The notes under the pieces: model-generated
The model's input: only the letters and a program-made list of their open reading frames with translations
Told to the model about the DNA's origin: nothing
Databases searched by the model: none
Program-made: the position numbers and the translations under genes
In this document: in pieces, positions 9,141 through 10,393 of the stretch
How positions within the stretch are numbered: position 1 is the first letter of the stretch
How the letters are laid out: each line of letters opens with the position of its first letter
Sequence record: PZ049337.1
Strand: one strand, 5' to 3'
Source of the DNA: a phage
DNA: 52,976 bases

Positions 9141-9235
9141 GGTGGACGAGGTTGGATTCGAACCAACGACACATCTGTCGAACAGATTGCTCTACCTGAC
9201 TAAGCTCTGGAGCAGACCTTCTGAGCTACTCGTCC
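9141..9235 (-). tRNA. tRNA-like gene with expanded D-arm; possible tRNA-Arg(UCG), isotype very uncertain
   Basis: Minus-strand read GGACGAG-TA-GCTCAG...GGTAGAGC...ATCTGTTCGACAGAT...GTTGG-TTCGAAT-CCAAC-CTCGTCC-A: perfect 7-bp acceptor stem, canonical T-arm, classic D-arm halves, but about 22 extra nt inside the D-loop; CCA not encoded. Confidence 0.4.
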
Positions 9236-10393
9236 AAAATTGGGTGGGTTTTGGTAACGCAGGTTTTCCCGAACTGCGAGGCTTGTAGAATCTGTGAGTC
9301 ATCTACTGTGTTTTGACATAACGTGGGATTGATGGTCCCGACTCACTTCATCTCAGGTACAAGGCACTACTTTGCGAGTGCAAGCAGGTGTTGAACCCAA
9401 GTACCAACAGGCAACCTGATTTAATCTACCTTTGTAGATACCATCGGTTATGAGCAGTTTATTTCCATGCTCAGGGCAACTCACTTTAGGGTGAATTAGG
9501 TTACGCAGTGCAGCTTCGAAGTCGCTGCCACAGGTTTGAGATTCCTGTGTGGAGGGAAATCCAGAGGAGCACTTCCCCAAGGAGTTACGTTTCAAATTGG
9601 CATAGCTTCTCACACTAAGCCAATTGAAGACATTCCAGTGTGCTCGTCCGTCCTCTAGAAATATCCAACTGCATAATTAAGTTTGTACTCTGTCACATCT
9701 CCACGCGCACTGGAAGACTTAAGCCTGCATTGCATCGCAGAATACAAATTAATTATTGCTCCGATTTATTAATCACATCTCGAAGCCACAATGCGCCAAA
9801 TTTGGTTACATGGGATTGGAAGACCACGGAGAGAACTTAAATTTAATTAAGCTGCAACTCGCATTTCAGAATCATTTGCATTTATTTTAAATGAATAAAA
9901 CAGTCGCAATAACTTCAGGCAGTTTAGACCCGTCGTAAGACTCAGAAAACTACTTCAATATGGACTCTGGCATTCAACCAGACTCGACTACTTTTCAAGG
10001 CACTACCCTCTACTTTTTCATCACCCGTACTGGATATACTTTCACTGGTGCCCTTCCGCAAAGATTTCTTAAAGCGTTTCCAGGATGTTTCGCGGTAGTG
10101 AATCGCTACTACTTCCAGGGTCTCCACCAATACTTTCTAGTGAGCACGTCCTTCCAGCTAATTGTCTTCTCTTATCGGAGAAGGGTTCGTCCATTGCACA
10201 TCCATATTGAAATAACTTCAATGAACACTCTTGTCTGGGCCATGAGCTTGGGCATCGGCCTACCTCCCAACTCTAATCACAAGAATGCTCATTGAAGCCC
10301 ACTCACTCTGGAATGGGTTCAAGGCAGCACCGGAAAACTTCCAGTGCATGCCAGATCGATTTAGCTTAGTCTCTCAAGTTTGCCATCGGCAAC

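Follow-up and report, generated by a model that had tools for sequence, protein, structure and literature searches.

The window analyzed here is the whole stretch of 52,976 nucleotides (nt) of phage DNA in record PZ049337.1. Between positions 9141 and 9235 it contains, on the minus strand, a gene that resembles a transfer RNA (tRNA) gene, with an enlarged D-loop and a short, variable loop at the place of the anticodon loop. By sequence comparison the window is a member of Carltongylesvirus (Chaseviridae, Cleopatravirinae; phiEcoM-GJ1 group): the 2.5 kb around the gene matched 49 phage records at 90-98% identity, all of them phiEcoM-GJ1-like myoviruses of E. coli and Yersinia. The genes of the window lie on the minus strand. 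An open reading frame (ORF) of 46 amino acids (aa) starts 27 nt downstream of the tRNA-like gene and is followed by Rz/Rz1-like spanin genes; a tRNA-related enzyme was not found among these neighbours.

The RNA was numbered n1 to n95 on the minus strand from 9235 to 9141 (n = 9236 minus the window coordinate). Divided into its parts, the full minus-strand sequence reads GGACGAG-TA-GCTC-AGAAGGTCTGCTCCAGAGCTTAGTCAGGTA-GAGC-A-ATCTG-TTCGA-CAGAT-GTGTC-GTTGG-TTCGAAT-CCAAC-CTCGTCC-A-CC. The parts are located as follows, with stems given in base pairs (bp).

9141-9235, minus strand: whole tRNA-like gene, n1-n95; discriminator A at 9143, then CC(C), not CCA
9229-9235, minus strand: 5' strand of the acceptor stem, GGACGAG, n1-7; 7/7 pairs with 9144-9150; invariant in 13 distinct variants
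9144-9150, minus strand: 3' strand of the acceptor stem, CTCGTCC, n86-92
9221-9228, minus strand: U8 and A9, first D-stem strand GCTC, A14 and G15, together TAGCTCAG, n8-15; invariant
9193-9222, minus strand: enlarged D-loop, n14-43, 30 nt compared with the usual 8-9; GG motifs at n18-19 and n40-41
9202-9215, minus strand: variable insertion core, n21-34; the window carries allele 1, CTGCTCCAGAGCTT
9189-9192, minus strand: 3' strand of the D-stem, GAGC, n44-47; pairs with GCTC in 100% of cells
9173-9187, minus strand: 'anticodon' arm, a 5-bp stem ATCTG/CAGAT with a 5-nt loop TTCGA (loop 9178-9182); stem invariant
9168-9172, minus strand: variable loop GTGTC, positions 44-48 of a class I tRNA; invariant and the same as the loop of the aligned phage tRNA-Phe
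9151-9167, minus strand: T-arm GTTGG-TTCGAAT-CCAAC; varies only by T/C at loop position 60 (n80)

A preliminary description of the locus, made from the letters of the DNA, had named an acceptor stem, a T-arm and both halves of a D-arm. All of these were found on the minus strand, with the acceptor stem completely paired. The 7-bp acceptor stem with its discriminator base and the 5-bp T-stem with its 7-nt loop (TTCRANY) are those of a canonical tRNA. The segment n8-15 directly abuts the acceptor stem, as in a normal tRNA, and the second half of the D-arm is GGTAGAGC (n40-47). The D-arm as a whole departs from the canonical form: stem and GG are present, yet the loop has 30 nt where about 7-11 nt are expected. 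The core nucleotides of a class I tRNA, i.e. U8, A9, A14, G15, GG, A21, A26 and G44-C48 (GUGUC), are all present and invariant. In tRNAs these nucleotides form the contacts U8-A14, A9-A23-U12, C13-G22-G46, G15-C48 and A26·G44, the GG pair contacts the T-loop, and T54 pairs with A58. The acceptor/T-arm minihelix and the elbow are intact, as in tRNA-like processing or mimic elements, and the anticodon region was judged to be non-functional.

Relationship to ordinary tRNAs and the D-loop insertion

Even when its thresholds were lowered, ARAGORN did not report a tRNA for the window, and Rfam gave no match in the window at the gathering threshold. In a sensitive search of 701 nt the Rfam tRNA model (RF00005, gathering score 29) aligned with n30-85 at 27.9 bits (E = 0.0013). 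This alignment spans the second D-arm copy to the T-arm and requires a deletion of 2 nt in the anticodon loop. Of the checks proposed in the preliminary description, ARAGORN was therefore negative, and the covariance model gave a tRNA-like score that stays under its gathering score.

After removal of the insertion, the sequence showed 77-81% identity to annotated phage tRNA-Phe, tRNA-Ile, tRNA-Asn and tRNA-Arg, and the nearest sequences outside the genus were ordinary phage tRNAs (75-81% identity). Aligned with the canonical tRNA-Phe of Klebsiella phage NDO71 and tRNA-Ile of Acinetobacter phage 133, the gene has 21 additional nt in the D region and lacks 2 nt in the anticodon loop; the rest, comprising acceptor stem, D-arm, variable loop and T-arm, is collinear and about 80% identical. 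It also resembles ordinary phage tRNA genes in its position between protein genes of a phage transcription unit. It differs from them in the enlarged D-loop, the loop of 5 instead of 7 nt, the unconserved 'anticodon', the Rfam score below the gathering score and the failure of ARAGORN to report it. The likeness to tRNAs goes beyond chance because the Rfam alignment, the identity of about 80% to phage tRNAs and the conservation in 29 related genomes coincide. As judged from these alignments, the locus is derived from an ordinary class I tRNA with a Phe/Ile/Asn-like body, and the comparison with related phages that had been suggested at the outset revealed a conserved element with a tRNA-derived body.

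The preliminary description had placed an insertion of about 22 nt between the D-arm halves. The insertion itself was confirmed; its size is 21 nt by alignment to the canonical phage tRNA-Phe and tRNA-Ile, and the string quoted for it had 24 nt. In the allele of phiEcoM-GJ1 (GJ1) the insertion has 20 nt. Equivalently, the insertion can be placed between positions 9 and 10. Where exactly it starts and stops is ambiguous, as the sequence AGCTCAG (n9-15) recurs in the window as AGCTTAG (n30-36), an imperfect direct repeat; in GJ1 the repeat of GCTCAG is perfect, with the copies exactly 20 nt apart. Since it repeats the 5' half of the D-arm, the insert looks like a partial duplication of that half plus filler.

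The core of the insertion occurs in two divergent alleles, CTGCTCCAGAGCTT in the window and TTGCATT-GTGCTC in GJ1, ST32, SKA49, DE15 and Bp10; in addition, TH24 has one single-nucleotide polymorphism and SA91KD a deletion of 6 nt. With 6/13 polymorphic sites and a nucleotide diversity (pi) of 0.165 the core is spacer-like. Neither folding nor covariation revealed a structure common to both alleles. Allele 1 can form an interrupted hairpin of 7 bp (n16-34), and allele 2 cannot, so a conserved hairpin was rejected. A mini-hairpin of 3 bp (n23-25/n30-32) was also discarded: simulations yield its one compensatory change (n25:n30, U-A to A-U) by chance in 9-44% of cases. Because the hairpin is absent in allele 2 and the compensatory pair is at chance level, the insert is without a demonstrated structure, and the alignment of the alleles showed that it evolves freely.

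Either the first or the second GCTY copy can form the D-stem with GAGC. Covariation cannot choose between them because both are 100% paired in all variants. We favour the first copy (n10-13) as the 5' strand of the D-stem, which the sequences suggest and do not prove: U8 and A9 directly precede this copy, the deletion in SA91KD removes the loop of the second copy with everything else kept, and constrained folding of allele 1 puts the hairpin into a large D-loop closed by the first copy. Constrained folding of the GJ1 allele gave the opposite result and preferred the second copy.

Variation among related phages

For the comparison we used 29 copies of the gene, representing 13 distinct sequences, from GenBank phages, IMG/VR and two metagenome contigs. 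Positions n1-20, n40-54, n59-79 and nearly all of n81-92 were invariant. Three isolated sites varied, all in a tRNA-compatible manner: T-loop position 60 (T/C), the pair n5:n88 (G-C to G-U, the sole change in the acceptor helix) and the discriminator (A/G). There are also two variable blocks, the insertion core (n21-34) and the loop n55-58. The polymorphic sites are distributed as follows.

tRNA body: 2/74
Downstream 46-aa ORF: 31/141 (22%), Fisher p = 9e-5 compared with the body
5' leader: 9/10
3' trailer: 9/20
Insertion core: 6/13
Loop n55-58: 4/4

In the helices 312/312 pair cells were standard pairs, and the substitutions within helices retained pairing. From the proportions of 2/74 and 31/141 it follows that the body is more constrained than the neighbouring protein gene, with the insertion core and the 'anticodon' behaving like spacers. 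The distribution of polymorphism thus showed that the tRNA body is under strong purifying selection across Carltongylesvirus.

This result bears on the three options that the preliminary description had left for the gene. A decayed tRNA is contradicted by the low polymorphism of the body relative to the ORF. A tRNA with an unusual D-loop element and a tRNA-like RNA with another role both fit a tRNA-derived gene with an expansion of about 21 nt in the D region.

The anticodon arm and the possible role of the RNA

The anticodon arm had been read as ATCT-GTTCGAC-AGAT, with a 4-bp stem and a 7-nt loop. This reading had to be revised: the helix is a perfect 5-bp stem with a 5-nt loop, and a loop of 7 nt needs an opened G-C pair. 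Under any register the arm comprises 15 nt compared with 17 in a canonical tRNA, so that the loop is 2 nt short, and the alignment with tRNA-Phe, tRNA-Ile and tRNA-Arg contains a gap of two columns at this place. In folding, the loop of the window can even close into a 6-bp stem with a triloop.

Four loop variants were found: TTCGA in most phages, TAAGA in PYps16N, TH26 and FXie, TTAGG in JL1 and Bp7, and TCGAA in TH29. Read as anticodons they correspond to UCG (Arg), AAG (Leu), UAG (Leu) and CGA (Ser), on unchanged bodies, and triplets other than UCG occur in 7/29 relatives. The first T (n54) is invariant, and the diversity of n55-58 (pi 0.21) is comparable with that of spacer. An association of the loop variant with insertion allele, flank type or host was not seen in this set. 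The window, which has A73, reads UCG if the closing G-C pair opens. The identity set of bacterial arginyl-tRNA synthetase (ArgRS) consists of A20, C35, U/G36 and A/G73, with A20 as the main determinant for the E. coli enzyme (PMC9976931). This A20 is absent, as the D-loop ends in GG-U-A (U20) where the aligned cyanophage tRNA-Arg has GG-A-U-A. The assignment of the gene to anticodon UCG (Arg) could therefore not be upheld: the triplet is not conserved in near-identical relatives, the loop is 2 nt short and U stands in place of A20.

Two further observations concern the letters of this arm. The motif GTTCGA of the T-loop recurs in the 'anticodon' loop at a distance of 20 nt (window 9158-9163 and 9178-9183), and the mini-loop of the majority variant equals the T-loop pentanucleotide UUCGA, which the other loop variants do not keep. 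The heptamer ATCTGTT, which we take to be the class II pause/termination signal of T7 RNA polymerase, lies in the anticodon stem/loop (n49-55, window 9181-9187, minus strand). It is probably a coincidence there, since the seventh base varies in relatives; the window has 4 copies, all on the coding strand, compared with about 10.7 expected on both strands, and shows no meaningful depletion on the coding strand.

Phage tRNA genes are usually read as helpers in codon usage or as spares against tRNA-cleaving defences. That the genus keeps the tRNA body under tight selection while the anticodon drifts points to a non-decoding use of the tRNA shape, in RNA processing or mimicry. We give an even chance to the interpretation that the gene encodes a tRNA-derived, probably non-decoding tRNA mimic, which is matured by host tRNA-processing enzymes. 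The RNA would be transcribed by the T7-like polymerase of the phage within a long middle-gene transcript. In GJ1 the annotated phage promoter 7 lies 1.3 kb upstream of the tRNA-like gene with no promoter between, and a sigma-70-like promoter was not detected near the locus, so that the RNA is most likely cut from a polycistronic transcript. Because the acceptor/T-arm minihelix and the elbow are kept, host RNase P together with 3' processing and CCA-adding enzymes may excise it as a stable RNA of about 93 nt, and the same cuts would sever the mRNA directly 5' of the 46-aa ORF and the spanin genes. The RNA would then act via its tRNA-shaped body and not by codon reading, either as a processing or punctuation signal or as a mimic or decoy for a tRNA-binding factor of the host or of its defence.

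Several points weigh against a non-decoding RNA. The literature searched contained no data on expression, processing or aminoacylation for any member of the group, and a partner for the decoy role was not identified. In all four loop variants the first base is T, equivalent to U33, and the last is a purine, equivalent to R37. The variation is confined to the three 'anticodon' positions and R37, a pattern that would also be expected from adaptive switching of the anticodon. The UAG variant is accompanied by G37, as in genuine CUN-Leu tRNAs. CGA accounts for 14% of the Arg codons of the phage and CTT for 23% of its Leu codons; we take both values to be above the usage in E. coli, so a reader of CGA or CUU could be useful. 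The anticodon stem and the core as a whole are conserved beyond what recognition by RNase P or the CCA-adding enzyme needs. Finally, the A/G polymorphism of the discriminator is what bacterial Arg identity tolerates (PMC9976931).

Most of these points speak at the same time for a working, unusual decoder, the main rival to the mimic. In such a tRNA the insert would be looped out at the solvent-exposed D-loop, and on the ribosome the closing G-C pair would open, so that the loop has the 7 nt G-U-UCG-A-C; the RNA would be charged by ArgRS and read CGA and CGG, with the relatives retargeted to CUU, CUA and UCG. Besides the kept U33 and R37 equivalents, the comparatively frequent CGA and CTT codons and the purifying selection on the whole L-shape including the anticodon stem, which suggests that the full L-shape matters, this possibility is favoured by the presence of C35 and G36 along with the A/G73 polymorphism and by annotation, as GenBank relatives are labelled tRNA-Arg (Ecp_YSF via tRNAscan-SE) and papers report Arg or Leu. 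We nevertheless regard it as doubtful. With 15 instead of 17 nt in the arm, the anticodon would lie one stacking layer too near the elbow in any register, and the main ArgRS determinant is missing. The Leu and Ser variants sit on a class I body without the long variable arm of bacterial Leu and Ser tRNAs and would be uncharged or mischarged; moreover, the AAG variants carry G73 where leucyl-tRNA synthetase needs A73. The anticodon, expected to be the most conserved part in orthologues, is here the least conserved, and both ARAGORN and the Rfam gathering threshold reject the gene.

The remaining explanations are weaker. It is improbable that the gene is a decaying tRNA pseudogene without present function, conserved through recent common descent or hitch-hiking. 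Its loss or replacement in several relatives, the 6-nt deletion in SA91KD, the damaged anticodon loop, the D-loop insertion and the CCA end that is not encoded in the window would agree with decay; yet the adjacent ORF and the spacers of the same genomes are four to twenty times as polymorphic as the body, its helices changed only in pairing-compatible ways, and the two divergent insertion alleles, found on bodies that are otherwise the same, speak for a gene that has long persisted under constraint. A very improbable alternative is the class II tRNA-Leu(CAG) that ARAGORN draws for GJ1 and for a copy from a metagenome; here the anticodon arm (loop GUCAGGU) is formed by the second D-arm copy, and ATCTG/CAGAT becomes a long variable arm. 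This fold would explain a variable 5-nt loop beside the invariant AGTCAGGTA, and A73 is present in the window. On the other hand, comparison with homologous canonical tRNAs shows that what would be the anticodon arm is an almost perfect D-arm, the drawing has no paired D-stem and contains an A·A mismatch, and ARAGORN makes no call on allele 1. The fold also leaves a conserved 5-nt spacer before the T-stem and turns the invariant A26 and GUGUC into meaningless spacers, although true spacers vary here, and the G73 found in 7/29 copies is contrary to Leu identity. That the extra 21 nt are an intron whose removal gives a normal tRNA goes back to the note 'may contain an intron' in the GJ1 record and can hardly be the case. 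Introns of the bulge-helix-bulge type require an archaeal or eukaryal endonuclease, which is absent from E. coli. A self-splicing intron of group I or II would have to be far longer than 20-21 nt, the alleles share no structure, Rfam found no intron at the locus, and removal of the insert still leaves an anticodon loop of 5 nt. The authors of the ST32 genome also state that their gene is 'without an intron' (PMC6266442).

Within the preferred interpretation of a non-decoding mimic, a more specific and in our view unlikely variant is a decoy with a disabled anticodon. Its intact body would bind a tRNA-directed defence or toxin enzyme of the host, such as an anticodon nuclease or a modifier of the acceptor end, and the 5-nt loop would be uncleavable. 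Loop and D-loop insert would then vary through an arms race with host alleles, and a second tRNA-like gene present in TH23, TH28 and TH33 would be a further decoy.

The proposed mimic can be compared with three known groups of RNAs. In plant mitochondrial t-elements and the MALAT1 mascRNA the acceptor/T-arm part is kept, the anticodon region is defective, and the RNA ends are made by RNase P and RNase Z. These are likewise tRNA-shaped modules inside longer transcripts (PMC1920247; PMC8128908). They are eukaryotic or organellar, and cleavage of the phage element is predicted from its shape; unlike them, it retains the full class I core, and a cleavage signal would not require as much. Phage tRNAs are also said to counter tRNA-cleaving defences, reported examples being the T5 tRNA-Lys against PARIS, the T5 tRNA-Tyr against retron-Eco7 and mycobacteriophage tRNAs with altered anticodon loops. 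Like the gene in the window, these are accessory and patchily distributed, with an anticodon stem-loop that departs from the host version and a fast-changing anticodon region. They reportedly keep a 7-nt loop and an anticodon and decode, whereas here the triplet changes, the loop is too short and a link to a defence system is hypothetical. The stable RNAs species 1 and 2 of T4 (rnaC and rnaD in the tRNA cluster) and the bacterial YrlA tRNA-like Y RNAs have no known decoding role. They too are small stable RNAs with tRNA-like acceptor/T domains that are matured by tRNA enzymes, but they have no sequence relationship to the phage element and no full cloverleaf, and Rfam found no such family at the locus.

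Annotation, distribution and surroundings of the gene

The feature is already known as an annotation; its non-canonical nature is not described in the literature searched. In the GenBank record of phiEcoM-GJ1 the homologue is a 95-nt tRNA-Arg with the intron remark quoted above, and for ST32 a 95-bp tRNA-Arg was published (PMC6266442). The records of Ecp_YSF, which credits tRNAscan-SE, and Pel53 contain a tRNA-Arg of 71 nt that starts within the insert and has only 4/7 of the acceptor stem. Mangalitsa was published with 0 tRNAs (PMC6753284). A paper on Yersinia phages reports Arg or Leu tRNAs in the group and states that PYps3T, 4T and 16T 'lack exactly the tRNA gene' (PMC8762354). Taken together, the records of the genus are inconsistent, with tRNA-Arg, tRNA-Leu, no tRNA or a spurious coding sequence (CDS) at this place, and it is hence unsafe to argue about codon adaptation from a 'tRNA-Arg' in these therapeutic-candidate phages.

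Scans of IMG/VR, JGI metagenomes and GTDB genomes with exact patterns found the gene only in this phage genus and no version without the insertion. The single outside match in these scans was a chance likeness of T-arm and acceptor stem to a Verticiella tRNA-Tyr, and E. coli genomes gave only weak matches, to a plasmid-borne tRNA-Asn. Within the genus the gene is accessory and dispensable because several relatives lack it or carry a replacement. By sequence the slot is empty in PYps3T, and in BSBP01 (L030, about 345-420) it holds a long GC-rich hairpin followed by ATTTTT, similar to an intrinsic terminator. The second tRNA-like gene mentioned above, of 70 nt and unrelated, lies immediately downstream in TH23 (L024, 368-437), TH28 and TH33 and was found only in these three phages. 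It has a perfect 7-bp acceptor stem, a D-arm, a T-arm (TTCGACT) and an 'anticodon' arm of 6 bp with the 4-nt loop GACG, so that mini-loops recur at the locus, a point in favour of the non-decoding interpretation. Its cloverleaf fold has a z-score of -3.6; ARAGORN calls it tRNA-??? and the Rfam tRNA model gave no match. One relative recorded with the host Staphylococcus hyicus, PP952070.1 (L010, 'Staphylococcus phage Pel53'), is a member of Chaseviridae and shares 96.5% identity with the coliphage region; the label of a Gram-positive host is doubtful and may reflect contamination or mislabelling.

A further conserved feature lies beside the gene.

9246-9288, minus strand: 43-nt element CTACAAGCCTCGCAGTTCGGGAAAACCTGCGTTACCAAAACCC, non-coding, just upstream of the tRNA-like gene; contains a 5-bp hairpin; regarded as neighbouring context of the RNA

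Among 28 relatives 2/43 sites of this element are polymorphic, which makes it even more conserved than the tRNA-like gene. Phages without the tRNA-like gene still have this element, and it occurs only once in the genome of the window. We rejected it as a phage promoter because it is unlike the GJ1 promoter consensus AACATTAGTTGGATGTGAA; it also contains no sigma-70-like site.

In GenBank relatives CDSs for hypothetical proteins are annotated over the tRNA-like gene on either strand (L008, 213-377; L013, 155-274; L027, 301-480). Small ORFs across the locus, on either strand, were rejected: the ATG is missing in most relatives and the insertions and deletions in the leader are not multiples of three, for which reasons these CDSs are likely to be spurious. 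At a distance from the locus, the segment 36001-38000 of the window has a G+C content of up to 0.51, compared with about 0.44 elsewhere in the window, and a strongly negative GC skew of -0.15.

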